Notes under the pieces: model-generated
The model's database searches: none
What the model saw: the letters and a program-made list of their open reading frames with translations, nothing else
What the model was told of the DNA's origin: nothing
Source: Okamejei kenojei
Lineage: Eukaryota
Assembly: GCA_035221665.1 (NCBI GenBank)
Contig: CM069154.1
Span: 2,480,001-2,544,000, forward strand
Direction of reading: 5' to 3'
Length of the DNA stretch: 64,000 nt
Position numbers and translations under genes: made by a program
Part shown: positions 4,634-48,859 of the stretch, in pieces
Layout of the letters: every line of letters begins with the position of its first letter
Position numbering within the stretch: the first letter of the stretch is position 1

Positions 4634-4770
4634 TCTTCTTCTTGCGTATGGTGTGCACAGCCTAAAGTTGTAAGACAACTTGTTCTGTTTGATCTTTTGT
4701 TTGTGCACGCTAGGTTGATTGCATTTGTTGAAACAGGGTGGACCACTTGAACGTTGCAATCTCCCACCTT
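4634..4770 (-). mobile_element. Short non-LTR retroposon fragment with (GAA)n tail (RTE-type 3' end)
   Basis: 13-bp target-site duplication ATGGAAACAAGCT at 4621-4633 and 4771-4783; (TTC)n on + at the left end. Confidence 0.65.
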
Positions 4771-4798
4771 ATGGAAACAAGCTGTTTTTTTGTGTCTG

Positions 4799-5005
4799 TA
4801 CTCCCGGCTTCCCCTGACCCTCATTGCCTGCGCTCACGTACTTTCAACCAATCACTGCCTCCCACGGAGCATTGGCCGTAGTCAGCCGCGACCTCTGCCA
4901 AACGTGTCGTTGCATCAGCATCAAGAACAATGCCATCCCAGCTGCCAGCGGCCAACCAGGCGCCCTACACATCCTGCTTCTGTCTCCACCACATCTCGCT
5001 CTGGC
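4799..5005 (-). other. Orphan IgV-family promoter fragment (no gene body)
   Basis: Homologous to 15455-15680 including the ERSE at 4848-4866; truncated just before the TATA box. Confidence 0.75.
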
Positions 5006-5934
5006 CCCCCACCCAGTGATGGAAATGGGGGGGGGGTACGCAGGGGTACGTTCCCTTACTTTTTAGACGCTGTTCCCCTACTTTTTAGTTTGCAGTCTCC
5101 ATGACAAGGCTGCCAACTCTCACGCTTTGAACGCGAGACTCAAGCATTTTGATAATTCTCACACACTCACGCTGATCACTAATTTTTCACGCGCTGTCGT
5201 GAGAAATTCTGTGACCAACGAGAATTTCAAAACTCATATCAATTGCATGGGCCGCGGGTGTTGGATAGCCGGGGCTGAGAAAGGGATGGAAGCAGAAGCA
5301 GTAGCGGGGACCGGATGTGGATGGGGAGCCGGGGCGGGTGAGTGTTTGCCGGGCTGGCGAGACACTCGCTGCAGCTCCGGCCATGGAGCTGCCTCAATGC
5401 AAGAGTCCCGGGCCATCGGAGGCGTCGGAAGCGTTGCGCCGTTGCCGTTAGAGTCTCTGTGCCGAATTCACCCTGGTGACCGGCATGGATCAGGCAGCGT
5501 CTGTGGAGAGAAGGAATGGGTGATGTTTCTGGTCGTGACCCTTCTAAGGGTCTCAACCCGAAACCTTTAGAAGGGTCTTGACCCGAAACGTCACCCATTC
5601 CTTCTCCACAGAGATGCTGCCTGTCCCGCTGAGTTGCTCCAGCATTTTGTTAAACTCTTCGGTTTAAACCAGCATCTGCAGTTCCTTCTCACATAATGAG
5701 ATCCCAACAAGACGACTTTGAAGCTAGCACCACACAGGTGGCGGAGGGACAGGGAGAGAGGGGATGTTAAATAAATCGATATTCATACTCAATCGGGGAA
5801 ATTAGTTGACATCTGTCTTTAAATTAATATTTTATTCATCTTTAAATGTAAGTCTTGGATTCATGTATCGCGGGAACAAATAAGCAAAGTAAATATAAAC
5901 TACAAATTAACTTCAGAAAATGAAACTTCACACT

Positions 5935-8900: not shown

Positions 8901-10915
8901 GATATTAACGATAGGTTCCCTCACTACTATCAAACACTTTACTCAACCAAAACGACAGTGGGTTCAGCAGGAATCAAATTATTTTCACAGAAATGCAATC
9001 TTACAGGTTTAGACCTGAAAGAGAGGGAATTATTAGGGGCTGAAATATCAGTAAAAGATATTGAAGAATCTATTAGTTCTTTAAAAAATGGAAAGGCCGC
9101 TGGCCCAGATGGTTTAAATAGCGAATTTTATAAACAATTTCATGATCTGATCTCGCCACGCCTACAGACATTATATACTCAAGCATTCATGCAACAGAAA
9201 CTTCCAGAAACTTTAAATGAATCAACAATATACTTATACCAAAAACGGATAAGGACCTTGAAGACCCAGGTTCCTATAGAGCAATTGCTCTCTTAAACAC
9301 CGATCAGAAAATATTAACCAAAATTTTAGCACATAGATTAAGTTTAGTGATTCATAAATTAATACACCCCGATCAAACAGGCTTTATTCCAAAACGTTAT
9401 TCATATTATAATCTGAGACGATTATTTAACATTACATACTCAAATAGAATAGCTAATGTAGATTTAGCAGTCATCTCGTTAGATGCTGAGAAAGCATTCG
9501 ATCAAGTGGAATGGCCCCACTTATTTTCGGTGATGGAAAAATTTCAACTACGTGAGAAGGCCTGTACTTGGGTTAAGCTTTTATATACCAACCCAACAGC
9601 TAGAATAATGACAAATCACATGTTATCAACAAAATTTGATTTATCTAAAGGTTGTAGACAAGGATGCCCGCTATCCCTGTTACTATTCACCCTTGTTATT
9701 GAACCACTAGCAGAAAGAGTTAGAGCACACCCAGAAATATATGGGTATAATACTAAAAATACAGTTAACAAAATTTCTCTATATGCAGATGATGTATTAT
9801 TATATATTACAAACCCAGAAATCAGCATCCCTAACTAGTTAAATCTTATAACTCAATTTGGTTTATTCTCGGGATACAGAATTAATTGGAATAAGAGTGA
9901 GATTATGCCAATAACGGAACTTAATTTATATATATTGCAAGAATCACCTTTTAAAATAGTGAATGAAAAATGTAAATACTTAGGAATTTACATGACCAAG
10001 AAATATACTTTATTCAAATCAAATTTCGTGCCTTTACTTAATAAATTCCATAAGAATATTCAATATTGGAAAACACTTCTCATTTCAATGCTCGGTAGAA
10101 TTAATGCTATTAAAATGATTTTCCTTCCTCAACTACTATACCTCTTTCAATCAATTCCGATATATCTCCCAAAAATGTCTTTAAAAAAAGTTGACTCTAT
10201 TGTAACAAGTTTTATTTGGGATTATAAGAATCACAGAATATGCAAAAAACACTTATGTAAACCCAAGACGAATGGAGAATCAGTCTTACCAAATGTCTTA
10301 TTTTATTTCTGGGCAGTCAATGTCAAAAACATAAATTTCTGGTTGGAAGATATGGATCAACAACCAGACTGGTTAAAGATGGAAAAGGAGGATTATCTGC
10401 CTTTTGAAGTTGGTCCAATTCTGTTAGCTCCTACAAATTTGAATTAAAAAATCTATAGTGAAAATCCGATAATACATAGTGGTATTCGAATTTGGAAACA
10501 ACTAAAGAAGACATTAAAATTGGATAATTTATCACTTTCTCTCTCTATTGCAAATAACCCTTCATTTAAACCTTCAGTATTGGATAAAGGTTTTGCACAA
10601 TGGAAAAATTATGGGATTAAAAAGCTGGGACATCTTTATAGAAAAGGTGTGTTCCTCTCATTTCAGGAGGTACAACAGAATTATGGATTACATTCAAATA
10701 TATTTTTTAGATATTTACAACTTAAAGATTATGTTATATCACATACACAAAAATACAGAACTAGAGAGCCAGAGATTCTAGATGATTGTTTGAATAAACA
10801 CCCCAACACAGTCAAATTAATATCTTACATTTATAGTACTCTTTTAGATAGTGACATTCCGTCGACGGAATTATATAGACAAGCATGGGAAAATGAATTA
10901 GTTCAACCCATAACT
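5935..10915 (+). mobile_element. Degenerate L1-clade LINE (ORF1 and ORF2 with APE endonuclease and RT), 3'-truncated
   Basis: ORF1 remnants (DLEGRQRRQNLRIVG...) at ~6084-7080. ORF2 remnants: GGDLN, YSRIDYFL, GPDG, SLDAEKAFD, GCRQGCPLS, LYADD (~9780), KYLGI. Many stops and frameshifts. Confidence 0.92.
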
Positions 10916-13199: not shown

Positions 13200-14264
13200 C
13201 TTTACATATCAATAACTTGTGAAATATAACAACAAATCTGAAGGAAACATTACATTGACAACGGGAAAATGCTGAATAAGGATCTGCAGAATCCCGGAGC
13301 CAATCATTCCCATCACCCGTTCCCCAAACATAACCCATTCGACCAACGCAATATTCCACCACTCACCCATAGCCCCCAACTGCGCAAGCGTGGCTCATTG
13401 CCCCTCATCCCCATCACTTCCTCCCCCTCCTCTCACCCTCCCTCTTCTCTCCCCTCACCTCCTCCCCTCCTCCACTCCTCCTTCACCGCTCCCTCCTGCT
13501 CCTTTCCCCTGCCCTCAGCCACTCCCTACCCTCAGTCAGTCCCTCCCACCCTCCATAACCCCTCTCCCCTCCCTACCCTCCTGACCCATTGGGCCTTGTT
13601 TCCCAAACTCTACCGCTGTGCCACCGTGACCACCTGTTTATTAAATGTTATCCATGAGTATGGTGTTTCCAAGCCTATTCTGCTGCTGCAGGTAACCATT
13701 TAATTGTTCCATTGTCGGTACATACAACAATTAAACACTCTTGACTCTAGACTCTTGACACCTGAGACCATGTGATTCACCTAACTTCACCGACAAACAT
13801 CCTCTCTTGCTCGGTTCTGTTGAAGGATATTCATTCTGAATCGTTGCCTCTGTTGCTCCACCACAGATGCTGCCTGACCCACTGTATGTCTCCCACATTC
13901 CCCTTTATTTTTGTTCCTGTTCTCAACATCTGCAGACTCCTGATTTTCCACATGTTGTTCTGTCCCCGTGTGGTCATGACCACAAATGGACACAGCTCAT
14001 AGAACCCGGCGATGTTGCCCGTAGTGAGCAGGAGTTGCACAAAGTTCACACCCAACTCAATGCTGGCGTACAAGGAATCACTCACACCAGCTGTCTTCAG
14101 GGCAGGCAGAAGTACATTTACTGGTGCAAACGGGGTCAGTTCTCCTCACTGCATGCGATCCGAAGGGCCTGTTTCCCTGCTTTACCTCTGAACTAAACTA
14201 AACTAAACTAAACTAGACTTTGCTACTGACCCTGGGACGGGCCCTGCTGAATCAGTGGGAGGTT

Positions 14265-14811
14265 TCACTGGATTGTCAGCCGGGCCAATTCTTCACATTC
14301 CTTATCACAAAAAGTGGTCCAGACACAGGAATATGTCCCCTCATCTTTCTCTTTTACGCCTGTCAGGAGCAATGAGCCGTCAAATTCAGGAAATGGATTT
14401 TCATGCACGAACTCGCAGTGGACATCAGATCCGTGATATCGGTGAAGTATTCCAGTATGACTCATGGCAATTTCAAGACCATCTTTTCTCCATGTAGCTA
14501 CACGGAGATATCCGTAATCTTTGGATACTTTACAGGGCAGCGTAATAGAACCACCCAGAGATGCAACGAGCACCTTCATGTTAATCGATGATGGTGCTCG
14601 TTGATAGGTGATGACGGTATGCATCAGAATCTGTCTCGTTCGTGCAACTTGGAAGCTGTTTATCGTTGACTTGCAGAGGCGCCCGTGCGTTCCACCCGGG
14701 CAAGTTTGCCTCCTCTCCCCATTCTCCGGAGATCGGACCTGTTCCAGTTCCGGAGACTTGCCACACCATCTCCTCAAGGACCATGAACCCTATCCATCTC
14801 TGCAGTCCCAT
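14265..14811 (-). pseudogene. Secreted single-IgV prepro-protein, copy A (divergent, frameshifted)
   Basis: Leader MGLQRWIGFMVLEEMVWQVSG...RAPLQVN stops at 14581. The V domain (GGSITLPC..W..DGSLLLTGVKEKDEGTYSC..RLTIQ*) continues in another frame to 14265. Same acceptor (CCCACAG|GAACATG) and post-stop motif as the other copies. Confidence 0.75.
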
Positions 14812-15340
14812 GTTCCTGTGGGTGAAACAATGGGTCACCTTATTGCAACTCAGTAGGATTCATGATGACATTCTCTGAACCCGTCCAGAGTTGGGGAATC
14901 GAGAACCAGAGGACATCGGTTTAAGGAGAGGGGGGGGAAAGATTTAATGGGAAACTGAGGGGTGACTTTTTTACACAAAGGGTGGAGGTTGTTTGGAACG
15001 AGCTGCCGGAAGAGGTAGTTGAGGCAGGTACTATCACAATGATTAAGAAACAGTTAGACAGGTACATTGATAGGGCAGGATTAGAGGGGTAAGGGCCAAA
15101 TGCTGGCAGGAGGGGCAAGTTGGTGGGCGCGGGAAAGTTGGGCCGAAGGTCTCGCTATATGACTCTATGACTCCATCACTTGTCCCACCCCGGTCATTCC
15201 TGCCTTCTCCCTGGTCCTGTCTAGCAGAAGGTACAGAAGCTTGAAAGCGCGCACCACCAGACTCAGGAACAGCTTCTTCCCCTCTGCTATCAGGCTTCTG
15301 AACTGGGGGAACAGTGAACAGAGACAATCCAACCCCCATC

Positions 15341-15690
15341 ACTCACAGGCACTTGAAGGATCCACAGGGGTGGTTACCAGCTCCAGAGTCTCCACACAGG
15401 GTGACGAGGCCGGTCTTGTTCACATCTCCTGCCATCGCTCGCTCCTTTTATACCTACTCCCGGCTTCCCCTGACCCTCATTGCCTGCGCTCACATACTTT
15501 CAACCAATCACTGCCTCCCACGGAGCATTGGCCGGAGTCAGCCGCGACCTCTCCACCCTCTGCCAAACGTGTCGTTGCATCAGCCGTTAACGTTTAACAA
15601 GAACAACGCCACCCCAGCTGCCAGCGGCCAACCAGGCGCCCCACACATCCTGCTTGTGTCTCCACCACGTCTCGCTTCGGCCACCGATCA
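15341..15690 (-). promoter_or_regulatory. IgV copy A promoter plus non-coding exon 1
   Basis: TATAAAA at 15452-15446, ERSE CCAAT-N9-CCACG at 15504-15522, second CCAAT, donor GTGAGT at 15346-15341. Confidence 0.7.
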
Positions 15691-16594
15691 CAGTTGAGGC
15701 AGAAACTATCCCAAGGTTTAAGAAACAGTTAGACAGGAGCATGGATAGGTCAGATTTGGAGGGATATGGACCAAACGTGGACAGGTGGGACTAGTGTAAC
15801 TGGGGCATGTTGGCCAGTGTGGGCAAGTTGGGCCGAAGGGCCTGTTTCCACGCTGTATCACTCTGACTCTACTACACTATGACATTAAATAAATAATGAT
15901 TATAAAATGAAACTTCACATAAATCTCATCCTCTCCTCTCTATACACAACACACTCATTGACTGCAGCAGATACAATGAATGTCACACTGGTGGTACCAG
16001 GGCACCTCTGGAACATGTTCTACTCAAGATGTGATAGAGAAGACGATGAAACACAGAACATGGAATAGTACAGCACAGGAACAGGCCCTTCGGCCCACAA
16101 TATCCGTGCTGAACATGATGCCAATTTAAGCTAATCTCCTCTGCCTGCATGTGATCTGTAATCTCTATCCCCTGCATATCCATGAGAAATTTTAGATAAA
16201 GCCTCTTAACTATTGTATCTGCCACCACCACCCACAGCAGCGGGTTCCAGGCACCCACCGCCCTCTGTGCCCCGCAGGTGAGGCCACATTTAGATCCCAA
16301 TTTTTAAGAAACAGTGAGTCAGGTACATGGATAGGACAGGTTTGGAAGGATATGGACCAAACTGGATGTTCTCAAGAGAGAGTTAGATTTAGCTCTTAGT
16401 GCTAACGCAATCAAGGGATATGGGGAGAAAGCAGGAATGGGGTACTGATTCAGGATGATCAGCCATGATCATCATTGAATGGCGGTGCTGGCTCGAAGGG
16501 CCGAATGGCCTACTTCTGCACCAATTTTCATTGTTTCTATGTTTCTACAATGAGGGTCAAAACTGGACTCTAATCAGTGCAAGAGGCCAATGTA

Positions 16595-16855
16595 AGGGAG
16601 GCTCAGTGATGCAGCGGTAGAGCTGCTGCCTTACAGCGCTAGAGACCCGTGTTCAATCCTGACTGTGGGTACTGTCTGTACGGTGGCTGTACGTATTCCC
16701 TATGACTGTGTGGGTTTCCTCCGGGTGCTACAGTTTCCTGACAGATTTCAAAGATGTGCTGGTTTGTAGGTTAATTGGCTTCAGTAAATTGTCTCTTGTG
16801 TGTAGGTTAGAACTTGTGTTTGGGCGATCACTCTAAACAAATCTAAACTAAACTC
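16595..16855 (+). mobile_element. tRNA-derived SINE
   Basis: GCAGCGGTAGAGCTGCTGCCTTACAGCGC...GTTCAATCCTGACT head and CTAAA tail. Confidence 0.7.
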
Positions 16856-17374
16856 AAGTCAACTCAAGTCAACTCGACTCAACTGAGCTAAAGGCAACTC
16901 CATGACATTTAATTTTGCTGCTCAGACCTGTTAAAATATTCTGGATTGGAACAAGTAAGGTCAGTTCAGTTTGACTTGGGATGCAAATAATAATGGTTCC
17001 GACTGTTAATGTTGAGGAGGGATTTCAATGCGCTGATCAAGGGATAAACACCCTCTTTACATCTTGTTCCACTAAAGCAATCAAAATCTAGAGACCACAA
17101 CATGGCTCCTCCACAGTTGTTGGTCATCAGCCATTGGCCTGCGGAAAAGGATGGAAAACCATAACTGGAAAGTGTCTTTTGTTGAGGAGCCTTTTAGGCA
17201 ATAAAACACATGGATATAATATGTAAAAAGCAAAATAATTCAATGAATGAGAGAGCACAATACTAGTGTGTAAAGCCAATATCCTTAGTACAACCAAAGA
17301 CAGTTCATGGACGTTCATCGTTGACCTCAGTGTCGTGCCGTGTTCAAGCTGGTTGTTGGGAAGGAAGAATTGAT

Positions 17375-17868
17375 CCAATCACTGCCTCCCACGGGGCATT
17401 GGCCGGAGCCAGCTGTGACCAATCCCACCGCACCGCCGGCTCAGGTGAGTATAAAGTGTGAAACCAGCGCAGGTGCCAGGGTGGTGGTGGTGACGTGGCG
17501 TGGCTGGGACATCCAGTCCGAATGTTGGCCAGAGCGAGACGTGGTGGAGACACAAGCAGGATGTGTGGGGCACTTGGTTGGCCGCTGGCAGCTGGGATGG
17601 CGTTGTTCTTGTTAAACGTTAACAGCTGATGCAACGACACGTTTGGCAGAGGGTGGAGAGGTTGCGGCTGACTCCGGCCAATACTCCGTGGGAGCCAGTG
17701 ATTGGTTGAAAGTACGGGAGCGCAGGCAATGAAGGTCAGGAGAAGCCGGGAGTAGGTTTAAAAGGAGCGAGCGATGGCAGGAGATGGAAATAAGACCAGC
17801 CTCATCACCCTGTGTGGAGACTCCGGAGCTGGTAACCACCCCTGTGGATCCTTCAAGTGTCTGTGAGT
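17375..17868 (+). promoter_or_regulatory. IgV copy B promoter plus non-coding exon 1
   Basis: ERSE at 17375-17393 and (reverse) 17687-17705, TGACGTGG at 17491, CCAAT at 17678, TTTAAAA at 17757, donor at 17863. Confidence 0.7.
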
Positions 17869-17894
17869 GATGGGGTTGGGATTGTCTCTATTCA

Positions 17895-18250
17895 CTGTTC
17901 CCCCAGTTCAGAAGCCTGACAGCAGAGGGGAATAAGCTGTTCCTGAGTCTGGTGGTGCGCGCTTTCAAGCTTCTGTACCTTCTGCTAGACAGGACCAGGT
18001 AGAAGGAGGAATGACCGGGGTGGGACAAGTCTTTGATTTTTTTGGTTGTAGATGGAGTCACTGGTGGGGTGAGTGGTCTGTGTGATGGACTGGGCTCCAT
18101 CCACAACTCTGCAATTTCATGTGGTCTTGGGCTCAGAGCTGTTCCCAACCAAGCTGTGGTGCAACCCGACAGTCTGCTCTCCGTGGTGCATCTGTAGAAG
18201 TTTCTAAGAGACATTGGAGACTTGCCATATTTCCTCGGTCTCCAAGGAAG
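17895..18250 (-). mobile_element. Rex1/Babar-type LINE 3' fragment in IgV intron (related copies at 15180-15305, 20865-20990, 31290-31620, 41030-41385, 42765-43120, 55925-56250)
   Basis: Peptide RNFYRCTTESRLSGC...RRYRSLKARTTRLRNSLFPSAVRLLN. Confidence 0.7.
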
Positions 18251-18429
18251 TTGATGCCACTTCAATGTTGTTGGTCAACGACAGGTCAAAGCAACTTAAA
18301 ATAAAGCAGGCGGGAGCTGAAGAAGCTGCACAGCGACATTGCCCAGTGTGGTGGCAGCAGCTTCAGAGAATGTTATCATGAATCCTACTGAGTTGCAATA
18401 ATGTGACCCATTGTTTCACCCACAGGAAC

Positions 18430-18945
18430 ATGGGACTGCAGAGATGGATAGGATTCATGGTCCTTGTGGAGATGGTGTGGCAAGTCTCCGGAACTGGAAC
18501 AGGTCCGATCTCCAGAGAATGGGGAGAGGAAGTAAACTTGCCCGGGTGGAACGCACGGGCTCCTCGACAAGTCAACACACAAGAAACTCCAGAATGCGGT
18601 GTTAAGCCATATTTGAACAAGATGAAATGGACAGAGATGACGGCACGCAAGGGTGGTTCTGCTACGCTACCCTGTAAAGTACCCACAGGGAAGGGTGGAC
18701 CCAAGCATTTTGTGGTCACCTGGAGTAAAGGGAAGGGGACACTGGGCGTGTTTACTGAAGGGAAAGGTCCAATCTATCCAGGAGGTTCCGGCCGCTGGAC
18801 GTTCACGAAACCAAATGTGGTTGAGACACGGGATGCCTCGTTGACTATCACGGGTTTACGCGAGACTGATATTGGGATATATTCCTGCGCTTGGTTCACT
18901 AGCCAAGGGGAATGCAGACTAAATATCAAGCTGACTGTGAAGTGA
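18430..18945 (+). CDS. Putative secreted single Ig V-set domain prepro-protein, copy B (171 aa)
   Basis: Acceptor AG at 18424-25, ATG at 18430. Hydrophobic N-terminus, RAPR|Q, V-set motifs GGSATLPC, VTW, DASLTI and D-x-G-x-Y-x-C; no TM segment. AATAAA at 19370. Non-coding exon 1 ends at donor GTGAGT 17863. Confidence 0.85.
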   Translation: MGLQRWIGFMVLVEMVWQVSGTGTGPISREWGEEVNLPGWNARAPRQVNTQETPECGVKPYLNKMKWTEMTARKGGSATLPCKVPTGKGGPKHFVVTWSKGKGTLGVFTEGKGPIYPGGSGRWTFTKPNVVETRDASLTITGLRETDIGIYSCAWFTSQGECRLNIKLTVK

Positions 18946-19589
18946 AACCTCCCACTGATTCAGCACAGACCCCTCCAAGTGTCAGGAGCAACAGGCAGTG
19001 GCAGGTCAGCACAAACACAATAACATCCCTCATTATAAACTTGACACACTTAGGCCAACAACAGCATTTTATATTGTAGTCACTGAATTCATCATGAGGG
19101 GAATAGAGGGGTGAACACTAAGCATCTTTTACCTGGGGTACGGGAATCAAGGGACATAAGTTTAAGGTGAGAGGGGCAAGATTTAATAGCAACCTGAGGG
19201 GCAAAATCTTTACTCAGGGGGCGGTGGGTTTATGGAACTGTCCGGTTGGGCGGGAACTGTAACAATATTTAATACACAATTGGTACAGGGAAAGGTTTAG
19301 GGGGATATGGGGCAAAAGTAGTGCAATGGAACAGACCCTGCTTGCACCGGTAAATGTACCATTAATGGAAATAAACTCTCTTGAAGACAACCGGTGTGAG
19401 TGATTCTTTGTACGCCAGCATTGAGTTGGGTGTGAACTTTGTGCAACTCCTGCTCACTACGGGCAGCATCGCTGGGTTCTATGAGCTGTGTCCATCATTG
19501 GTCATACCACATGGGGACGGAACAACATGTGGAAAATCAGGAGTCTGCAGATGTTGAGAACAGGAACAAAAATAAAGGGGAATGATGTC

Positions 19590-20140
19590 AGGAACAAAAG
19601 TAAAGGCAGATGACACAAAAGTAGGTGGTTTTGCAGATAGTGGAGATGATTGTGAAAAACTGCAGCAGAATCTTGAACTATTGGCCAGGTGGGCTGAGGA
19701 ATGGTTGATGGAATACAGAGAAATGTGAGGTGTTGTATTTTGGGGAGTCTAACATGTGCAGGACCTACACAGTGAATGGCCCGGCTCTGGGGAATGTTGT
19801 AGAGCAGAGGAATCTATGAGTGAAGGTGCATGGTTCCTTGAAGATGCAGTCACAGGTAAATAGGGTGGTCAAAAAGGCTTTTAGCACATTGGCCTTCATC
19901 AGTCAGAGTATTGAGTATGGAGGTTGGGAGGTCATCTTGCAGCTGTACAAGACATTGTTGAGGCCACATTTAGATCCCAATGTTTAATAAACAGTTGGAC
20001 AGGTACATGGATAGGACAGGTTTGGAGGGATATGGACCAAACACAGGCAGGTGAGACTATTGTAGCTGGGACATGTTGGCCACTGGGACATGTTGCAACT
20101 TGGGCCGAACGGCCTGTTTCCACGCTGTATCACTCTAGGA
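19590..20140 (+). mobile_element. Degraded CR1 fragments (duplicate at ~44455-45005)
   Basis: GCAGATGACACAAAAGTAGGTGG (ADDTKVGG) and downstream CR1 RT-like sequence. Confidence 0.7.
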
Positions 20141-20522
20141 CTCTATTACACTATGACATTAAATAAATAATGATTATAAAATGAAATTTCACATAAATCT
20201 CATCTTCTCCTCTGGCTGTATACACAACACACTCATTGACTGAAGCAGATACAATGAATGTCACACTGGTGGTAACCAGGGCACCTCTGGAAAATGTTCT
20301 TCTCAAGATGTGATTGAGAAGATGATGCAACATAGAACATGGAACAGTACAGCACATGAACAAGCCCTTCGGCCCACAATGTCCGTGCTGAACATGATCA
20401 CCATGGAAAATTGGTTCTGACTGTCTACCCTATCTGGATCTCATACTTTTATAACTTGTGCAAGAGGCCAATGCAAGGGAGGCACAGTGGCGCAGAGGTA
20501 GTGTTGCTGCCTTCCAGCGCTA

Positions 20523-20830
20523 TGTGTGGGGCGCCTGGTTGGCCGCTGGCAGCTGGGATGGCGTTGTTCTTGTTAAACGTTAACGGCTGATGCAACGACA
20601 CACGTTGGCAGAGGGTGGAGAGGTCGCGGCTGACTCCGGCCAATGCTCCGTGGGAGGCAGTGATTGGTTGAAAGTACGTGAGCGCAGGCAATGAGGGTCA
20701 GGAGAAGCCGGGTGTAGGTGTAAAAGGAGCGAGCGATGGCAGAAGATGAGAACAAGACCGGCCTCGTCACCCTGTGTGGAGACTCTGGAGCTGGTAACCA
20801 CCCCTGTGGATCCTTCAAGTGCCTGTGAGT
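20523..20830 (+). promoter_or_regulatory. IgV copy C promoter plus non-coding exon 1
   Basis: Reverse ERSE at 20649-20667, TGTAAAA at 20719, donor GTGAGT at 20825. Confidence 0.68.
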
Positions 20831-21374
20831 GATGGGGGTGGGATTGCCTCTGTTCACTGTTCCCCCAGTTCAGAAGCCTGATAGCAGAGGGGAAGAAGCT
20901 GTTCCTGAGTCTGGTGGTGCGCGCTTTCAAGCTTCTGTACCTTCTGCTGGATAGGACCAGGGAGAAGGAGGAATGACCGGGGTGGGACAAGTGATGGAGT
21001 CATAGAGTCATATAGCGAGACCTTCGGCCCAACTTGCCCGCGTCCACCAACTTGTCCCCTTCAAACCTACACCCACCTGCCTGCTTTTGGCCCTTACCCC
21101 TCTAATCCTGTCCTATCAATGTACCTGTCTAACTGTTTCTTAATCATTGTGATAGTACCTGCCTCAACTAACTCTTCCAGCAGCTCGTTCCAAACACCCT
21201 CCACCCTTTGTGTAAAAAAGTCACCCCTCAGTTTCCCATTAAATCTTTCCCCCCCCTCTCCTTAAACCGATGTCCTCTGGTTCTCGATTCCCCAACTCTG
21301 GACGAGTTCAGAGAAGGTCATCATGAATCCTACTGAGTTGCAATAAGGTGACCCATTGTTTCACCCACAGGAAC

Positions 21375-21890
21375 ATGGGACTGCAGAGATGGATAGGATT
21401 CGTGGTCCTTGTGGAGATGGTGTGGCAAGTCTCCGGAACTGGAACAGGTCCGATCTCCAGAGAATGGGGAGAGGAGGCAAACTTGCCCGGGTGGAACGCA
21501 CGGGCTCCTCGGCAAGTCAATGAAGATCCAACTCCACAATGCGGTGTTAACCTAGCTCCGGACAAGATGAGGTGGACGGAGGTGACGGCCAGTAAGGGGG
21601 GTTCTGCTCAGCTAGCCTGCAAAATGCCCAAAGAAGACGATGGAGCCGATACATTTGTGGTACTGTGGACGAAAGGAAAAGATACGATCGCCGTGTTTAC
21701 TGACAGGAACGGTGCTCAATATCCAGGGTCACCCGGACGCTGGAAGTTCATGAAAACAAACGTGGTTGAGACACGGGACGCCTCGTTGGTCCTGGCGGGG
21801 CTGGAAGAGGAAGATGCTGGGAAATATTCCTGCGCTTGGCTGGTTAATAACGTGCCGTGTAAACTAAACACCAAGCTGACAGTGCAGTGA
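21375..21890 (+). CDS. Putative secreted single Ig V-set domain prepro-protein, copy C (171 aa)
   Basis: Acceptor at 21369-70, ATG at 21375. Leader 47/49 identical to B. V domain GGSAQLAC..VLW..DASLVL..DAGKYSC. AATAAA at 21957; exon 1 donor at 20825. Confidence 0.85.
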   Translation: MGLQRWIGFVVLVEMVWQVSGTGTGPISREWGEEANLPGWNARAPRQVNEDPTPQCGVNLAPDKMRWTEVTASKGGSAQLACKMPKEDDGADTFVVLWTKGKDTIAVFTDRNGAQYPGSPGRWKFMKTNVVETRDASLVLAGLEEEDAGKYSCAWLVNNVPCKLNTKLTVQ

Positions 21891-22235
21891 AACCTCCCAC
21901 TGATTCAACACAGGCCCTTCCAAGGGACAGGAGCACGATGATTTCAGTGACTACAAAATAAAATGCTGCTCCTAAAATTGGTGTTGACCTAAGTGTGTCA
22001 TATTTATAATGACAGACATTATGGTGGTGTTGTGGTGACCTGCCCATGACCTGCCTATTGCTACTGTCCCTTCACCATGCAATTACCCAATCACAGCATC
22101 ATCTCCTTCCTAAAAGAACGTCCTTTAATTCTGAGGTGTGACCTCTAGTCCTAGACTTTCCCACCAGTGGAAACATCCCCTCCACATCCACTCTATCCAA
22201 GACTTTCACTATTCTGTATGTTTCAGTGAGGTTCG

Positions 22236-22270
<35 letters not shown>

Positions 22271-24114
22271 ACCTCTCTGCCCACTCTCCCAACCTGTCCA
22301 AGTCCTCCTGTAGAGACTCCACCTATTTTTGTATCCCTTTAATACCATGGGCACTCATCTTCCTTAGCAGCCTCACGTGTGGCACTTTATCAAAGGCTTC
22401 CGAAGGGGAGTTCAGAACCAGGGTAACAGTTTAAGAATAAGGGGGTAGTCCATTTAGGACTGACATGAGGAAAAAAAATCACCCAGAGAGTTGTGAATCT
22501 GTGGAATTCTCTGCCACGGAAGGCAGTGGAGGCCACTTCACTGGATGTTTTCAAGAGAGAGTTAGATTTAGCTCTTAGGGCTAACGGAATCAAGGGATTT
22601 GCGGAAGAGCAAAAAGCAGGACTTGGACTGGGTAGTGATTTTGGATGATCACTTTGCAAAAACAGGAAAGCAGACTATTATTTAAATGGTGGCCGATTAG
22701 GAAAAGGGGAGATGCATATTGAATGGCGGTGTTAGCATGCTTGAACAGGAGCTGAATGCCCTGCTCCTCCGCCTATTTTCCATGTTTCTATGTTTCTGTG
22801 ACTCGCTGGAGCCACAACACAGCTTAGGATGTGTGGGGCACTCTCTGCCACAGAGGGTTTGTCAACTGTCGGGACATCTTTGATGCAGCCACAATTCGTT
22901 AGTAATTAACGGAATGGCGGTGCTGCTTGACTCTAACCACACAGAGGACAAGTCTGGGCACCACTCTGTGAACGACAATGTTTGCTTGACACCAGTTTGT
23001 ATTGGGGTGGCACAGTGGTAGCATAGCTGTAGAGTTACTGCCTCACAATGCCAGAGACCCGGGTTCGATCCTGACTACGGGTGCTGCCATTAAAGTTTTT
23101 GCATGTTCTCCCAATGACAATGGCCAGACCCTTTTCACCAGAAGAGAAATACCAATTACCACAGGACATCAGACAGACAGTTTGAGTAGATCATCAGAAC
23201 AATTTTCCCAGGGTGGGAATGTAGAGGGCAGAGCTTTAAGGTGAGAGGGGCAAAGTTTAAATGAGATGTGCGGGGCAAGTTTTTTTTACACGGAGAGTGG
23301 TGGGGGCCTGGAACGCGCTGCCAGGGGTGGTGGTGGAGACAGATACGATAGTCGTGTTTAAGAGGCTTTTAGATTGGCACATTGACATGTAGGGAATGGA
23401 GGGATACGGATCACGTGCAGGCAGAGATTAGTTTAACCTGTCTGCAGGTGAATGGTGGAATCTGGGAGAAATTGAAAACCATATAGGGAGAATAAAGTTG
23501 GATTAGATTAGTGTACGATTTGTGTAAATGGATGGCTGATGGATGGCATGAACACAAAGGGTCTGTGTCTCTCTGAAAACAAGATTGTGCAAAAGCTTGA
23601 AAGGTAAGTAACTGCACGTGACTGTGACATTCATATTGATGTGTTCCTTCCCTCTGGAAGGCGACACCGGACTGTCGAAGCTCAACATCTTTTTTTCCAT
23701 GAGCAGTAGCTCTACTCAACAACCAGAAATCTGTAGCCTCCTTGTGCTCTGGTATTTTATGTCATTCTTCACATGTTGAAATTGTAATGTTTCATTCCTA
23801 ATTGTTAACTGTATATCGTGTTGTTACTTGCGAGCAAAGCACCGAGTCAAATTCTTGTATGTATACATACTTGGCTAATACCACTTATTCAATTCAATTC
23901 ATAGCAACAGAAATTGCTGACTTTAATTAATAAACTGTTTATCAGGATGAGGGGAATTTTGAAGGATGAGGGGGTGGGGACCTCATTGAAACTTACCGAA
24001 TAGTTAAAGGCCTGGGCAGAGTGGATGTGGAGAGGATGTTGCCATTATTTACGGAGTCCAGGACCAGAGGGCACAGTCTCAGAATAAAGGTAAGTAACTT
24101 TAGGAAGGAGATGT

Positions 24115-40694: not shown

Positions 40695-41002
40695 TGGCCA
40701 GAGCGAGACGTGGTGGAGCCACAAGCAGGATGTGTGGGGCGCCTGGTTGGCCGCCGGCAGCTGGGGTGGCGTTGTTCTTGTTAAACGTTAACGGCTGATG
40801 CAACGACACGTTTGGCAGAGGGTGGAGAGGTCGCGGCTGACTCCGGCCAATGCTCCGTGGGAGCCAGTGATTGGTTGAAAGTACGTGAGCGCAGGCAATG
40901 AAGGTGAGGAGAAGCCGGGAGTAGGTATAAAAGCCCCGTCACCCTATGTGGAGACTCCGGAACTGGTAACCACCCCTGTGGATCCTTCAAGTGTCTGTGA
41001 GT
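40695..41002 (+). promoter_or_regulatory. IgV copy D promoter plus exon 1
   Basis: Reverse ERSE at 40856-40874, TATAAAA at 40926-40932 followed by a short deletion relative to other copies, donor at 40997. Confidence 0.65.
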
Positions 41003-41553
41003 GATGGGGTTGGGATTGTCTCTATTCACTGTTCCCCCAGTTCAGAAGCCTGACAGCAGAGGGGAATAAGCTGTTCCTGAGTCTGGTGGTGCGCGCTTTC
41101 AAGCTTCTGTACCTTCTGCTAGACAGGACCAGGTAGAAGGAGGAATGACCGGGGTGGGACAAGTCTTTGATTTTTTTGGTTGTAGATGGAGTCACTGGTG
41201 GGGTGAGTGGTCTGTGTGATGGACTGGGCTCCATCCACAACTCTGCAATTTCATGTGGTCTTGGGCTCAGAGCTGTTCCCAACCAAGCTGTGGTGCAACC
41301 CGACAGTCTGCTCTCCGTGGTGCATCTGTAGAAGTTTCTAAGAGACATTGGAGACTTGCCATATTTCCTCGGTCTCCAAGGAAGTTGATGCCACTTCAAT
41401 GTTGTTGGTCAAAGCAACTTAAAATAAAAGCAGGCGGGAGCTGAAGAAGCTGCACAGCGACATTGCCCAGTGTGGTGGCAGCAGCTTCAGAGAATGTTAT
41501 CATGAATCCTACTGAGTTGCAATAATGTGACCCATTGTTTCACCCACAGGAAC

Positions 41554-42087
41554 ATGGGACTGCAGAGATGGATAGGATTCATGGTCCTTGTGGAGATGGT
41601 GTGGCAAGTCTCCGGAACTGGAACAGGTCCGATCTCCAGAGAATGGGGAGAGGAAGTAAACTTGCCCGGGTGGAACGCACGGGCTCCTCGACAAGTCAAC
41701 ACACAAGAAACTCCAGAATGCGGTGTTAAGCCAGATTTGAACAAGATGAAATGGACAGAGATGACGGCACGCAAGGGTGGTTCTGCTACGCTACCCTGTA
41801 AAGTACCCACAGGGAAGGGTGGACCCAAGCATTTTGTGGTCACCTGGAGTAAAGGGAAGGGGACACTGGGCGTGTTTACTGAAGGGAAAGGTCCAATCTA
41901 TCCAGGAGGTTCCGGCCGCTGGACGTTCACGAAACCAAATGTGGTTGAGACACGGGATGCCTCGTTGACTATCACAGTTGTTGGTCATCAGCCATTGGCC
42001 TGCGGAAAAGGATGGAAAACCATAACTGGAAAGTGTCTTTTGTTGAGGAGCCTTTTAGGCAATAAAACACATGGATATAATATGTAA
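41554..42087 (+). pseudogene. IgV prepro-protein copy D (B-type), truncated in strand E and fused to upstream-flank sequence
   Basis: Matches B/E up to ...RDASLTIT (~41975), then reads into the sequence found at 17115 (VVGHQPLAC...). Lacks the second canonical Cys. Confidence 0.75.
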
Positions 42088-42241
42088 AAAGCAAAATAAT
42101 TCAATGAATGAGAGAGCACAATACTAGTGTGTAAAGCCAATATCCTTAGTACAACCAAAGACAGTCCATGGACGTTCATCGTTGACCTCAGTGTCGTGCC
42201 GTGTTCAAGAGCCTGCTGGTTGTTGGGAAGGAACAATTGAT

Positions 42242-42735
42242 CCAATCACTGCCTTCCACGGGGCATTGGCCGGAGCCAGCTGTGACCAATCCCACCGCAC
42301 CGCCGGCTCAGGTGAGTATAAAGTGTGAAACCAGCGCAGGTGCCAGGGCTGTGGTGGTGATGTGGCGTGGCTGGGACATCCAGTCCGAATGTTGGCCAGA
42401 GCGAGACGTGGTGGAGACACAAGCAGGATGTGTGGGGCGCCTGGTTGGCCGCTGGCAGCTGGGGTGGCGTTGTTCTTGTTAAACGTTAACAGCTGATGCA
42501 ACGACACGTTTGGCAGAGGGTGGAGAGGTTGCGGCTGACTCCGGCCAATACTCCGTGGGAGCCAGTGATTGGTTGAAAGTACGGGAGCGCAGGCAATGAA
42601 GGTCAGGAGAAGCCGGGAGTAGGTTTAAAAGGAGCGAGCGATGGCAGGAGATGGAAATAAGACCAGCCTCATCACCCTGTGTGGAGACTCCGGAGCTGGT
42701 AACCACCCCTGTGGATCCTTCAAGTGTCTGTGAGT
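42242..42735 (+). promoter_or_regulatory. IgV copy E promoter plus exon 1
   Basis: ERSE at 42242-42260 and reverse ERSE at 42554-42572; donor at 42730. Confidence 0.68.
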
Positions 42736-43296
42736 GATGGGGTTGGGATTGTCTCTATTCACTGTTCCCCCAGTTCAGAAGCCTGACAGCAGAGGGGAAT
42801 AAGCTGTTCCTGAGTCTGGTGGTGCGCGCTTTCAAGCTTCTGTACCTTCTGCTAGACAGGACCAGGTAGAAGGAGGAATGACCGGGGTGGGACAAGTCTT
42901 TGATTTTTTTGGTTGTAGATGGAGTCACTGGTGGGGTGAGTGGTCTGTGTGATGGACTGGGCTCCATCCACAACTCTGCAATTTCATGTGGTCTTGGGCT
43001 CAGAGCTGTTCCCAACCAAGCTGTGGTGCAACCCGACAGTCTGCTCTCCGTGGTGCATCTGTAGAAGTTTCTAAGAGACATTGGAGACTTGCCATATTTC
43101 CTCGGTCTCCAAGGAAGTTGATGCCACTTCAATGTTGTTGGTCAACGACAGGTCAAAGCAACTTAAAATAAAGCAGGCGGGAGCTGAAGAAGCTGCACAG
43201 CGACATTGCCCAGTGTGGTGGCAGCAGCTTCAGAGAATGTTATCATGAATCCTACTGAGTTGCAATAATGTGACCCATTGTTTCACCCACAGGAAC

Positions 43297-43812
43297 ATGG
43301 GACTGCAGAGATGGATAGGATTCATGGTCCTTGTGGAGATGGTGTGGCGAGTCTCCGGAACTGGAACAGGTCCGATCTCCAGAGAATGGGGAGAGGAAGT
43401 AAACTTGCCCGGGTGGAACGCACGGGCTCCTCGACAAGTCAACACACAAGAAACTCCAGAATGCGGTGTTAAGCCAGATTTGAACAAGATGAAATGGACA
43501 GAGATGACGGCACGCAAGGGTGGTTCTGCTACGCTACCCTGTAAAGTACCCACAGGGAAGGGTGGACCCAAGCATTTTGTGGTCACCTGGAGTAAAGGGA
43601 AGGGGACACTGGGCGTGTTTACTGAAGGGAAAGGTCCAATCTATCCAGGAGGTTCCGGCCGCTGGACGTTCACGAAACCAAATGTGGTTGAGACACGGGA
43701 TGCCTCGTTGACTATCACGGGTTTACGCGAGACTGATATTGGGATATATTCCTGCGCTTGGTTCACTAGCCAAGGGGAATGTAGACTAAATATCAAGCTG
43801 ACTGTGAAGTGA
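43297..43812 (+). CDS. Putative secreted single Ig V-set domain prepro-protein, copy E (B-type, 171 aa)
   Basis: Duplicate of B with Q18R and Y-to-D (KPDL) changes; intact ORF; exon 1 donor at 42730; AATAAA at 44237. Confidence 0.85.
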   Translation: MGLQRWIGFMVLVEMVWRVSGTGTGPISREWGEEVNLPGWNARAPRQVNTQETPECGVKPDLNKMKWTEMTARKGGSATLPCKVPTGKGGPKHFVVTWSKGKGTLGVFTEGKGPIYPGGSGRWTFTKPNVVETRDASLTITGLRETDIGIYSCAWFTSQGECRLNIKLTVK

Positions 43813-45389
43813 AACCTCCCACTGATTCAGCACAGACCCCTCCAAGTGTCAGGAGCAACAGGCAGTGGCAGGTCAGCACAAACACAATAACATCCCTCAT
43901 TATAAACTTGACACACTTAGGCCAACAACAGCATTTTATATTGTAGTCACTGAATTCATCATGAGGGGAATAGAGGGGTGAACACTAAGCATCTTTTACC
44001 TGGGGTACGGGAATCAAGGGACATAAGTTTAAGGTGAGAGGGGCAAGATTTAATAGCAACCTGAGGGGCAAAATCTTTACTCAGGGGGCGGTGGGTTTAT
44101 GGAACTGTCCGGTTGGGCGGGAACTGTAACAATATTTAATACACAATTGGTACAGGGAAAGGTTTAGGGGGATATGGGGCAAAAGTAGTGCAATGGAACA
44201 GACCCTGCTTGCACCGGTAAATGTACCATTAATGGAAATAAACTCTCTTGAAGACAACCGGTGTGAGTGATTCTTTGTACGCCAGCATTGAGTTGGGTGT
44301 GAACTTTGTGCAACTCCTGCTCACTACGGGCAGCATCGCTGGGTTCTATGAGCTGTGTCCATCATTGGTCATACCACATGGGGACGGAACAACATGTGGA
44401 AAATCAGGAGTCTGCAGATGTTGAGAACAGGAACAAAAATAAAGGGGAATGTTGTCAGGAACAAAAGTAAAGGCAGATGACACAAAAGTAGGTGGTTTTG
44501 CAGATAGTGGAGATGATTGTGAAAAAACTGCAGCAGAATCTTGAACTATTGGCCAGGTGGGCTGAGGAATGGTTGATGGAATACAGAGAAATGTGAGGTG
44601 TTGTATTTTGGGGAGTCTAACATGTGCCGGACCTACACAGTGAATGGCCCGGCTCTGGGGAATGTTGTAGAGCAGAGGAATCTATGAGTGAAGGTGCATG
44701 GTTCCATGAAGATGCAGTCACACGTAAAAAGGGTGGTCAAAAAGGCTTTTAGCACATTGGCCTTCATCAGTCAGAGTATTGAGTATGGAGGTTGGGAGGT
44801 CATCTTGCAGCTGTACAAGACATTGTTGAGGCCACATTTAGATCCCAATGTTTAATAAACAGTTGGACAGGTACATGGATAGGACAGGTTTGGAGGGATA
44901 TGGACCAAACACAGGCAGGTGAGACTATTGTAGCTGGGACATGTTGGCCACTGGGACATGTTGCAACTTGGGCCGAACGGCCTGTTTCCACGCTGTATCA
45001 CTCTAGGACTCTATTACACTATGACATTAAATAAATAATGATTATAAAATGAAACTTCACATAAATCTCATCTTCTCCTCTGGCTGTATACACAACACAC
45101 TCATTGACTGAAGCAGATACAATGAATGTCACACTGGTGGAACCAGGGCACCTCTGGAACATGTTCTTCTCAAGATGTGATTGAGAAGATGATGCAACAT
45201 AGAACATGGAACAGTACAGCACATGAACAAGCCCTTCGGCCCACAATGTCCGTGCTGAACATGATCACCATGGAAAATTGGTTCTGACTGTCTACCCTAT
45301 CTGGATCTCATACTTTTATAACTTGTGCAAGAGGCCAATGCAAGGGAGGCACAGTGGCACAGAGGTAGTGTTGCTGCCTTCCAGCGCTA

Positions 45390-45695
45390 TGTGTGGGGCG
45401 CCTGGTTGGCCGCTGGCAGCTGGGGTGGCGTTGTTCTTGTTAAACGTTAACGGCTGATGCAATGACACGTTGGCAGAGGGTGGAGAGGTCGCGGCTGACT
45501 CCGGCCAATGCTCCGTGGGAGGCAGTGATTGGTTGAAAGTACGTGAGCGCAGGCAATGAGGGTCAGGAGAAGCCGGGAGTAGGTGTAAAAGGAGCGAGCG
45601 ATGGCAGGAAATGTGAACAAGACCGGCCTCGTCACCCTGTGTGGAGACTCCGGAGCTGGTAACCACCCCTGTGGATCCTTCAAGTGCCTGTGAGT
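45390..45695 (+). promoter_or_regulatory. IgV copy F promoter plus exon 1
   Basis: Reverse ERSE at 45514-45532, TGTAAAA, donor GTGAGT at ~45690. Confidence 0.66.
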
Positions 45696-46239
45696 GATGG
45701 GGGTGGGATTGCCTCTGTTCACTGTTCCCCCAGTTCAGAAGCCTGATAGCAGAGGGGAAGAAGCTGTTCCTGAGTCTGGTGGTGCGCGCTTTCAAGCTTC
45801 TGTACCTTCTGCTAGACAGGACCAGGGAGAAGGAGGAATGACCGGGGTGGGACAAGTGATGGAGTCATAGAGTCATATAGCGAGTCCTTCGGCCCAACTT
45901 GCCCGCGTCCACCAACTTGTCCCCTTCAAAACTAGACCCACCTGCCTGCTTTTGGCCCTTACCCCTCTAATCCTGCCCTATCAATGTACCTGTCTAACTG
46001 TTTCTTAATCATTGTGATAGTACCTGCCTCAACTAACTCTTCCAGCAACTCATTCCAAACACCCTCCACCCTTTGTGTAAAAAAGTCACCCCTCAGTTTC
46101 CCATTAAATCTTTCCCCCCCCTCTCCTTAAACCGATGTCCTCTGGTTCTCGATTCCCCAACTCTGGACGAGTTCAGAGAAGGTCATCATGAATCCTACTG
46201 AGTTGCAATAAGGTGGCCCATTGTTTCACCCACAGGAAC

Positions 46240-46756
46240 ATGGGACTGCAGAGATGGATAGGATTCATGGTCCTTGTGGAGATGGTGTGGCAAGTATCCG
46301 GATCTGGAACAGGTCCGATCTCCAGAGAATGGGGAGAAGAGGCAAACTTGCCCGGGTGGAACGCACGGGCTCCTCGGCAAGTCAATGAAGATCCAACTCC
46401 ACAATGCGGTGTTAACCTAGCTCCGGACAAGATGAGGTGGACGGAGGTGACGGCCAGTAAAGGGGGTTCTGCTCAGCTAGCCTGCAAAATGCCCAAAGAA
46501 GACGATGGAGCCGATACATTTGTGGTACTGTGGACGAAAGGAAAAGATACGATCGCCGTGTTTACTGACAGGAACGGTGCTCAATATCCAGGGTCACCCG
46601 GACGCTGGAAGTTCACGAAAACAAACGTGGTTGAGACACGGGGACGCCTCGTTGGTCCTGGCGGGGCTGGAAGAGGAAGATGCTGGGAAATATTCCTGCG
46701 CTTGGCTGGTTAATAACGTGCCGTGTAAACTAAACACCAAGCTGACAGTGCAGTGA
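46240..46756 (+). CDS. IgV prepro-protein copy F (C-type) with +1 G at 46640-46643 (frameshift or homopolymer error)
   Basis: Duplicate of C; ACACGGGGACG versus ACACGGGACG in C splits the ORF into two frames; AATAAA at 46823. Confidence 0.75.
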
Positions 46757-48859
46757 AACCTCCCACTGATTCAACACAGGCCCTTCCAAGGGACAGGAGC
46801 ACGATGATTTCAGTGACTACAAAATAAAATGCTGCTCCTAAAATTGGTGTTGACCTAAGTGTGTCACATTTATAATGACAGGCATTATGGTGGTGTTGTG
46901 GTGACCTGCCCATGACCTGCCTATTGCTACTGTCCCTTCACCATGCAATTACCCAATCACAGCATCATCTCCTTCCTAAAAGAACGTCCTTTAATTCTGA
47001 GGTGTGACCTCTAGTCCTAGACTTTCCCACCAGTGGAAACATCCCCTCCACATCCACTCTATCCAAGACTTTCACTATTCTGTATGTTTCAGTGAGGTTC
47101 GCCCCCCCCCCCACCTCTCTGCCCACTCTCCCAACCTGTCCAAGTCCTCCTGTAGAGACTCCACCTATTTTTGTATCCCTTTAATACCGTGGGCACTCAT
47201 CTTCCTTAGCAGCCTCACGTGTGGCACTTTATCAAAGGCTTCCGAAGGGGAGTTCAGAACCAGGGTAACAGTTTAAGAATAAGGGGGTAGTCCATTTAGG
47301 ACTGACATGAGGAAAAAAAATCACCCAGAGAGTTGTGAATTTGTGGAATTCTCTGCCACGGAAGGCAGTGCAGGCCACTTCACTGGATGTTTTCAGGAGA
47401 GAGTTAGATTTAGCTCTTAGGGCTAACGGAATCAAGGGATAAGAGCAAAAAGCAGGAACGGGGTACTGATTTTGGATGATCAGCCATGATCATATTGAAT
47501 GGCGGTGCATGCTTGAAGGACTGAATGCCCTGCTCCTCCGCCTATTTTCCATGTTTCTATGTTTCTGTGACTCGCTGGAGCCACAACGAGGATGTGTGGG
47601 GCACGTTGTCAACTGTCGGGACATCTTTGATGACCACAATCTCGTTAGTAATTAACGGCGGCTGACTAGCAACCACACAGAGACAAGTCTGGGCACCACT
47701 CTGTGAACGACAATGTTTGCTTGACACCAGTTTGTATTGGGGTGGCACAGTGGTAGCATAGCTGTAGAGTTACTGCCTCACAATGCCAGAGACCCGGGTT
47801 CGATCCTGACTACGGGTGCTGCCATTAAAGTTTTTGCATGTTCTCCCCATGACAATGGCCAGACCCTTTTCATCAGAAGAGAAATACCAATTACCACAGG
47901 ACATCAGACAGACAGTTCGAGTAGATCATCAGAACAATTTTCCCAGGGTGGGAATGTAAAGGACTAGAGGGCAGAGCTTTAAGGTGAGAGGGGCAAAGTT
48001 TAAATAAGATGTGGGGGGCAAGTTTTTTTTACACGGAGAGTGGTGGGGGCCTGCAACGCACTGCCAGGGGTGGTGGTGGAGACAGATACGATAGTCGTGT
48101 TTAAGAGGCTTTTAGATTGGCACATTGACATGTAGGGAATGGAGGGATACGGATCACGTGCAGGCAGAGGAGATTAGTTTAACCTGTCTGCAGGTGAATG
48201 GTGGAATCTGGGAGAAATTGAAAACCATATAGGGAGAATAAAGTTGGATTAGATTAGTGTACGATTTGTGTAAATGGATGGCTGATGGATGGCATGAACA
48301 CAAAGGGTCTGTGTCTCTCTGAAAACAAGATTGTGCAAAAGCTTGAAAGGTAAGTAACTGCACGTGACTGTGACATTCATACTGATGTGTTCCTTCCCTC
48401 TGGAAGGCGACACCGGACTGTCGAAGCTCAACATCTTTTTTTCCATGAGCAGTAGCTCTACTCAACAACCAGAAATCTGTAGCCTCCTTGTGCTCTGGTA
48501 TTTTATGTCATTCTTCACATGTTGAAATTGTAATGTTTCATTCCTAATTGTTAACTGTATATCGTGTTGTTACTTGCGAGCAAAGCACCGAGTCAAATTC
48601 TTGTATGTATACATACTTGGCTAATACCACTTATTCAATTCAATTCATAGCAACAGAAATTGCTGACTTTAATTAATAAACTGTTTATCAGGATGAGGGG
48701 AATTTTGAAGGATGAGGGGGTGGGGACCTCATTGAAACTTACCGAATAGTTAAAGGCCTGGGCAGAGTGGATGTGGAGAGGATGTTGCCATTATTTACGG
48801 AGTCCAGGACCAGAGGGCACAGCATCAGAATAAAGGTAAGTACCTTTAGGAAGGAGAGG

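Follow-up and report, generated by a model that had tools for sequence, protein, structure and literature searches.

The window analyzed here, a 64,000-nt stretch of an Okamejei kenojei contig (CM069154.1, positions 2,480,001 to 2,544,000), contains six copies (A to F) of a gene for a single-IgV protein, in clusters that alternate with three copies of a GH18 and CBM_14 chitinase gene (1-2343 on the plus strand, 28590-39322 and 53210-63900 on the minus strand). One chitinase copy is inverted and 87-93% identical to the others, and the middle copy lies head-to-head with gene D at a distance of about 1.4 kb. The segments 17112-39244 and 41973-63846 are about 98% identical (98.1-98.3%; 134 mismatches and 61 gaps in 13,036 columns) and represent either a young duplication or a second haplotype. 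In each IgV gene, an intron of 531-563 nt separates a short exon 1 from a single large exon 2, and the upstream regions of these genes carry exact matches to the ER-stress element (ERSE), CCAAT-N9-CCACG:

14265..15683, minus strand: gene A; ERSE at 15504-15522; frame breaks after the leader
17774..17862, plus strand: exon 1 of gene B, which starts here at the first ATG and runs up to the donor GTGAGT; its peptide corresponds to residues 1-30 of the Leucoraja erinacea models
17863..18425, plus strand: intron of B; antisense dispersed-repeat fragment from about 17906
18426..18945, plus strand: exon 2 of B, encoding a signal-peptide-like segment, a spacer with RAPR/QV at its end, and a single V-set Ig domain; free of transmembrane segments
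20522..21890, plus strand: gene C; ERSE at 20649-20667; intact ORF
40695..41975, plus strand: gene D; ERSE at 40856-40874; first ATG deleted just after the TATA box; IgV cut at the duplication junction
42237..43812, plus strand: gene E, a near-copy of B; distal ERSE at 42242-42260, proximal ERSE at 42554-42572; intact ORF
45389..46756, plus strand: gene F, a near-copy of C; ERSE at 45514-45532; frameshift late in IgV

The initial annotation of this DNA regarded the ERSE-bearing module as the 5' end of a secreted-type single-IgV gene family, and exon 1, the splicing pattern, the V-set match, and the N-termini of homologues all bear this out. Splicing of B, C, and E, which in B joins the donor GTGAGT (17863) to its acceptor (18426), yields proteins of 202 aa, the length of three of the six L. 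erinacea models. Their N-terminus is the same as in all six models, and this agreement provides independent support for the module being a real 5' end. We rejected an upstream ORF that would use a donor at about 17831, since GTGAGT is the donor in the homologue models. The ORF is intact in B, C, and E and frameshifted in A and F, and D carries a deletion and is truncated; the frameshift of F lies in a G run and may be a sequence error. In exon 1, pN is lower than pS in two of three pairs, on at most eight differences.

All three window proteins pass the curated cut-off of PF07686 (Pfam V-set). The predicted model has a V-type fold (pLDDT 81-91 by block over residues 71-171; the first 50 residues are of low confidence), and the Foldseek matches are V domains, the nearest being the D1 domains of CAR and the nectin family at 22-34% identity, a generic V-set match; the ESM Atlas likewise returned only generic V-set clusters. 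A single hydrophobic segment is found at the N-terminus (best 19-residue hydropathy 1.05), possibly preceded by a 31-aa extension, and none at the C-terminus; the proteins are putatively secreted. An RxxR occupies the RAPR/QV position in nine of ten aligned proteins and is possibly a furin-type (proprotein-convertase) cut site. Two extra invariant cysteines, C56 and C162, may hold the N-terminal and last strands together.

Named homologues are confined to six L. erinacea proteins (LOC129708937/39/41/42/45/46) and one from Rhinoraja longicauda (LOC144605155), all uncharacterised; compared as proteins, they share the family, the leader, and the V-set domain, with orthologue pairs among the mature domains. 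A profile search added no named homologue to these seven skate proteins. Among the matches listed, one further full-length relative (P0032) resembles the family in its leader, carries a PRQV motif, and is extended at the N-terminus by 28 unrelated residues; the other 148 listed matches cover part of the profile only and were left out. Searches of largely open-access literature found no paper naming the L. erinacea or Rhinoraja gene identifiers and, on concerted evolution of leaders, no title on a skate IgV family; for secreted skate V-domain proteins with chitinase, only a general review surfaced (PMC6795676).

The elements of the promoter module, with gene B as the reference, and the gene-less copies of the module are as follows:

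17370..17425, minus strand: proximal element copied in inverted orientation (56 bp), with 8 mismatches against the A copy; restricted to the regions upstream of B and E
17491..17498, plus strand: UPRE consensus TGACGTGG; intact only in gene B; E has TGATGTGG
17611..17623, no strand: HNF1-like palindrome; 2 mismatches to the 13-nt consensus; in all six gene promoters, deleted in the orphan fragment
17678..17682, plus strand: second CCAAT box, opposite in orientation to that of the ERSE, at a distance of 18 nt; in all seven young copies
17687..17705, minus strand: proximal ERSE of gene B, CGTGG-N9-ATTGG in gene direction; 51 nt before the TATA-like box
17757..17764, plus strand: TATA-like box, reading TTTAAAAG in B and E; precedes the first ATG by 17 nt
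4797..5006, minus strand: orphan promoter fragment; ERSE at 4848-4866; stops before the TATA box, with no exon after it
47568..47725, plus strand: old diverged module relic; neither ERSE half-site survives; a 1-mismatch HNF1-like site lies at 47644-47656
22800..22990 (end approximate), plus strand: duplicate of the old relic; HNF1-like site at 22898-22910

An exact search recovered all nine CCAAT-N9-CCACG matches reported in the initial annotation (chance mean 0.13; nine reached in none of 100 shuffles), together with their three spacer variants. When one mismatch was allowed, just two extra sites appeared in the 64-kb window, both unrelated. The nine matches comprise (i) six proximal sites, one in each of genes A to F, (ii) two sites in the 56-bp inverted copy, and (iii) one site in the gene-less fragment. 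The statement that every IgV promoter carries an ERSE holds for the proximal site of all six genes; three of the nine matches lie in other contexts. All six proximal ERSEs read antisense to their genes, lie 51 nt upstream of the TATA-like box (previously estimated at about 50 nt), and end 68 nt ahead of the first ATG position of exon 1 (six of nine matches). Their spacers contain 5 or 6 G+C of nine; a GC-rich spacer was reportedly given as a criterion of ERSE-I by Roy and Lee in 1999.

The inverted copy upstream of B includes both the distal ERSE (17375-17393) and, at 17419, a third CCAAT; the distal ERSE of E (42242-42260) also lies in the 56-bp inverted copy. Within the distal block of B and E (17419-17456), a separate CCAAT is accompanied by a TATAAAG that overlaps a donor-like CAG/GTGAGT; this might be an additional promoter or exon further upstream. 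Near the orphan fragment at 4848, tblastn detected no IgV sequence, and the fragment may be a deletion remnant. Adjoining it, at 4621-4782, is an insertion of about 140 bp between 12-bp direct repeats. The module begins at 17526, 15683, 40695, and 5006 in four lineages, with nearly the same boundary and unrelated flanks, and a piece that lies upstream of C recurs ahead of A and D with its orientation to the gene reversed.

Self-comparison placed all nine matches inside one duplicated module, in agreement with the earlier warning that the copies are not independent. The nine motifs therefore appear to descend from one ancestral site. Since the nine perfect copies are paralogous, they amount to one observation, not nine, and we dropped the nine-fold enrichment as evidence, its excess over chance stemming from duplication.

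The combination of fixed half-sites and a varying spacer had been pointed out; it is not significant as a sign of constraint, the spacer contrast resting on two variable columns of 19 (P=0.21). None of the ten half-site columns varies among the seven young copies, compared with 19 of 173 ungapped columns, so that the half-sites seem no more conserved than the surrounding module (P=0.30). In the inverted copy, the whole 19-mer is kept and all eight mismatches fall outside it (P=0.027 with boundaries chosen post hoc; P=0.18 for the half-sites alone). An exact ERSE arose by chance in 74 of 100,000 composition-matched shuffles of the 201-nt promoter. This rarity and the intact 19-mer in the older inverted copy favour ERSE function beyond the estimate that we give below. 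Retention of the CpG in CCACG was discarded as a signal: 6 of 12 consensus CpGs are unchanged across the copies, and retention is thus unremarkable. The module is CpG-rich (o/e 0.78-0.91 versus 0.49 for the window), and in predicted human ERSEs the CpG of CCACG is described as the least conserved part (PMC10700025, partial text).

The other promoter elements are less uniform. The UPRE consensus TGACGTGG is indeed present at 17491, but it is intact in one gene of six, decayed in E, and absent from A, C, D, and F, which rules it out as a family feature; TGACGTGG/A arose by chance in 535 of 20,000 shuffles of the 421-nt region. Similarly, GACGTGG does recur upstream of A, B, D, and E, as reported, but without enrichment (7 found, mean 3.84, 7 reached in 12 of 100 shuffles). 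Every young copy has two CCAAT boxes, and the distal block has three. The TATA-like box has its canonical form, TATAAAAG, only in the broken copies A and D; B and E carry TTTAAAAG there, and C and F carry TGTAAAAG. The box precedes the first ATG by 17 nt. Either the transcript excludes this ATG or the box does not serve as the core TATA; the ERSE is proximal either way. At up to two mismatches to the HNF1 consensus, the window holds eight HNF1-like matches, all in module copies (mean 2.47; 8 reached in none of 100 shuffles). They fall in six young promoters and two old relics, with a single mismatch only in the relics, and are paralogous. No Rfam match was found in 14000-24000; a bacterial promoter scan, irrelevant to this DNA, also gave no match.

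Comparison of the paralogues revealed a discordance along the gene, missed in the initial annotation. Paralogues share 92-98% identity over the block of promoter, exon 1, and leader but only 52-70% in the mature IgV domain. By segment, the identities among A, B, and C are 94-98% upstream, 95-100% in the ERSE, 95-97% in the leader, 52-70% in the mature domain, and 76-77% in the 3' flank. The first 165 nt of the intron, mostly the dispersed-repeat fragment, share 95-98% identity in A, B, and C; in the middle, B departs from A/C, and over the last 115 nt its identity with A/C is just 62-64%. Synonymous divergence of B from C amounts to 0.09 in the exon-2 leader versus 0.51 in the mature domain of the same exon, and the switch occurs at about exon-2 nucleotide 151, at the predicted RxxR/QV cut. 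The homogenisation in 18426-18576 and the equivalent parts of A and C-F ends at the RAPR/QV motif.

The mature domains form orthologue pairs across species: C pairs with LOC129708945 (91%, versus 58% to B), B with LOC129708941/42, and A with LOC129708939. At three places in the leader, by contrast, residues fixed in all six L. erinacea paralogues occur in none of the three window paralogues (protein level); the leader tree is weakly supported (74/74). Concerted evolution is thus indicated both by species-wide fixed leader differences and by local synonymous discordance, the cross-species part at the protein level only. Species-wide leader residues in old paralogues point to gene conversion, which we infer to be the cause of the uniform 5' block. 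The low identity of the last 115 nt of the intron (62-64%, B versus A/C) argues against a single conversion tract for the whole block. Part of the protein similarity comes from purifying selection on the leader. Within a homogenised block, the presence of an ERSE in every promoter is uninformative on selection.

The anatomy of the locus, the exon structure, and the sequence discordance are direct observations. Together they are probably best explained by one site in the proximal promoter of a secreted single-IgV skate family, spread by conversion of the 5' block within an NF-Y-type promoter. Gene conversion would keep the promoter, exon 1, both intron ends, and the leader up to RxxR/QV near-identical within the species, and the mature IgV domains would be old and divergent. 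The promoter most likely works as a CCAAT-box (NF-Y) promoter with its start at or just after the TATA-like box, the HNF1-like site being a candidate gut, liver, or kidney input. The CCACG is correctly spaced for docking of ATF6 or XBP1s beside NF-Y; real use of this half-site, i.e. a functional ERSE, we would put forward only tentatively. The likely outcome would be different V domains acting as a panel with co-expression and a shared secretion route.

What this promoter responds to can be read in two ways. The reading to which we assign nearly an even chance takes the CCACG as incidental: paired NF-Y boxes and an HNF1-like site would form a constitutive epithelial (gut-type) promoter, co-expressed with the neighbouring chitinases. 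It accounts for the two CCAAT boxes in all young copies and the three in the distal block, for an HNF1-like site that persists in the young copies and is better matched in the ERSE-less old relic, and for the GH18 and CBM_14 chitinase exons flanking the clusters, although the HNF1 match has two mismatches to the consensus. NF-Y motifs, for their part, are among the commonest in promoters and act 50-150 bp upstream of starts (PMC11160661, partial text). The price is a coincidence of about 1 in 1,000 per promoter, acceptable only via genome-wide multiplicity; the rarity of an ERSE in one promoter is offset by the many promoters in a genome. An ordinary NF-Y promoter with an HNF1-like site would fit the anatomy as well as UPR wiring does.

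The second reading, possible but held with some reserve, is a selected functional ERSE, with the secreted IgV genes as direct ATF6/XBP1s targets under ER stress or in professional secretory cells. The consensus is exact and promoter-proximal in all six genes, its chance occurrence in one promoter is the low figure given above (74/100,000), a second exact ERSE persists upstream of B and E, B has a UPRE, and the gene-less old relic has lost both half-sites. In published work, ATF6 binds CCACG only when NF-Y occupies CCAAT (PMC8301375), medaka requires the ATF6 arm (PMC3962220), and direct targets of CREB3L factors include secreted cargo genes (PMC3116243; partial text for all three). Yet the sites have one origin and conservation not in excess (P=0.30), and the UPRE is intact only in B. 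A human scan gives a base rate: an exact ERSE lies no more than 300 bp upstream of seven protein-coding genes, HSP90B1, FICD, FRG2C, CKMT2, NLRP4, ZNF17, and GLRA2 (PMC5890977, partial text). The count covers all 535 ERSE-I rows of the S2 Table, from which we dropped three pseudogenes, MIR3652 (sharing the HSP90B1 element), and PLCB4 (its listed distance disagrees with the coordinates). In the largely open-access literature searched, nothing was found on ERSE/ATF6 in cartilaginous fish and skate UPR, which also tells against this reading, nor on CREBH/ERSE/HNF1 promoters. Two of the seven human genes are recognised UPR targets, a proportion that speaks against an ATF6/XBP1s role as a rough prior only, the scan being seemingly one-strand and without HSPA5. 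UPR control of the skate genes is therefore plausible but unproven.

A further doubt concerns the number of genes. It is unlikely, though not negligibly so, that the copy number is partly an assembly artefact, with two haplotypes or a mis-join making E and F alleles of B and C. Such an artefact would account for the 98.1-98.3% identity with many small gaps and for D being cut exactly at the junction, but L. erinacea likewise has at least six paralogues. If it were true, the gene count would change and the conclusion would not. Very improbably, the module is a dispersed repeat (solo LTR or MITE) carrying the motif, co-opted or passive: A, B/E, D, and the orphan have nearly one 5' boundary with different flanks, the B module begins with TG and meets the intron repeat at CA, and the elements at 17375 and 17705 form an inverted pair, but six of seven young copies continue into exon 1 of an IgV gene, no copy is scattered like the other repeats of the 64-kb window (a low- or mid-copy family being compatible with this), AATAAA/ATTAAA are absent from 17526-17905, no common target-site duplication was seen by eye in the flanks, the inverted arm is limited to B and E, and the leader block occurred on no longer protein among ten candidates (a weak test). 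A solo LTR in particular is disfavoured, given that the TG/CA ends of B come without AATAAA/ATTAAA and without dispersed copies in the window.

Returning to conversion of a 5' block with an NF-Y-type promoter, the family resembles several known systems in part. The precursors of conotoxins and frog-skin peptides have a conserved prepro region and a variable mature region. Similarly, the skate family combines a constant leader and basic cut site with a variable business end; in the skate, homogenisation also spans promoter and intron DNA, which is not known for those precursors. The VCBPs of amphioxus and Ciona are secreted V-region proteins, and the likeness extends to the secreted V domain. 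Identity with VCBPs was rejected: the skate proteins have one V domain and then stop, with no CBM_14, whereas VCBPs have two V domains and a C-terminal chitin-binding domain, and the chitinases of the skate locus are separate neighbouring genes.

ERSE-I promoters belong to the ER chaperone genes HSPA5, HSP90B1, and CALR, and also to XBP1 and DDIT3. Like these, the skate genes have an exact CCAAT-N9-CCACG near the gene 5' end, with a second copy upstream in B and E, and by sequence and position the skate site would class as ERSE-I. Unlike the chaperone genes, the skate gene would encode cargo, not ER machinery, and is known here from sequence alone; its second copy is a local inverted duplication in one lineage. 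Another comparison is with Crp and Sap, driven by CREB3L3, and Col1a1, driven by CREB3L1: as a secreted, possibly innate-immune protein under an ER-resident bZIP factor, such cargo offers a precedent for the UPR idea, although the sites described for CREB3-family cargo are CRE, box-B, ERSE-II, and UPRE rather than ERSE-I (PMC3116243, partial text).

Uniform promoters and leaders joined to divergent V domains, in an uncharacterised skate family of predicted secreted single-V proteins, are a better supported result than UPR control. Whether or not the ERSE works, the locus illustrates that conversion can keep a promoter and leader uniform while Ig domains diverge, and cautions that perfect motif copies at one locus may be one observation. 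If the ERSE works, the locus would offer a clear example of ERSE-I acting directly on a secreted cargo gene in a cartilaginous fish, and a compact reporter for the elasmobranch UPR. The most elaborate scenario is rather improbable: a panel of secreted, processed single-V proteins, locked by conversion to one promoter and prepro-leader, driven by ATF6/XBP1s via the ERSE, and released beside chitinases with a mucosal (probably gut) secretory programme. It would amount to a constant-promoter, variable-domain innate repertoire coupled to the UPR.

Several minor features of the window were also recorded. The region at about 6000-10900 is a long AT-rich decayed element with ORF pieces that we take to be L1-like; Pfam gave no match for the intron repeat or for the one such piece checked. 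The intervals 22715-22990 and 47491-47760 differ by unusually many small indels for duplicates that are 98% identical, suggesting poor polishing. Minisatellites with a period of 65-66 bp occur at 26124-26572 and 33531-33841, and both are duplicated in the second segment.
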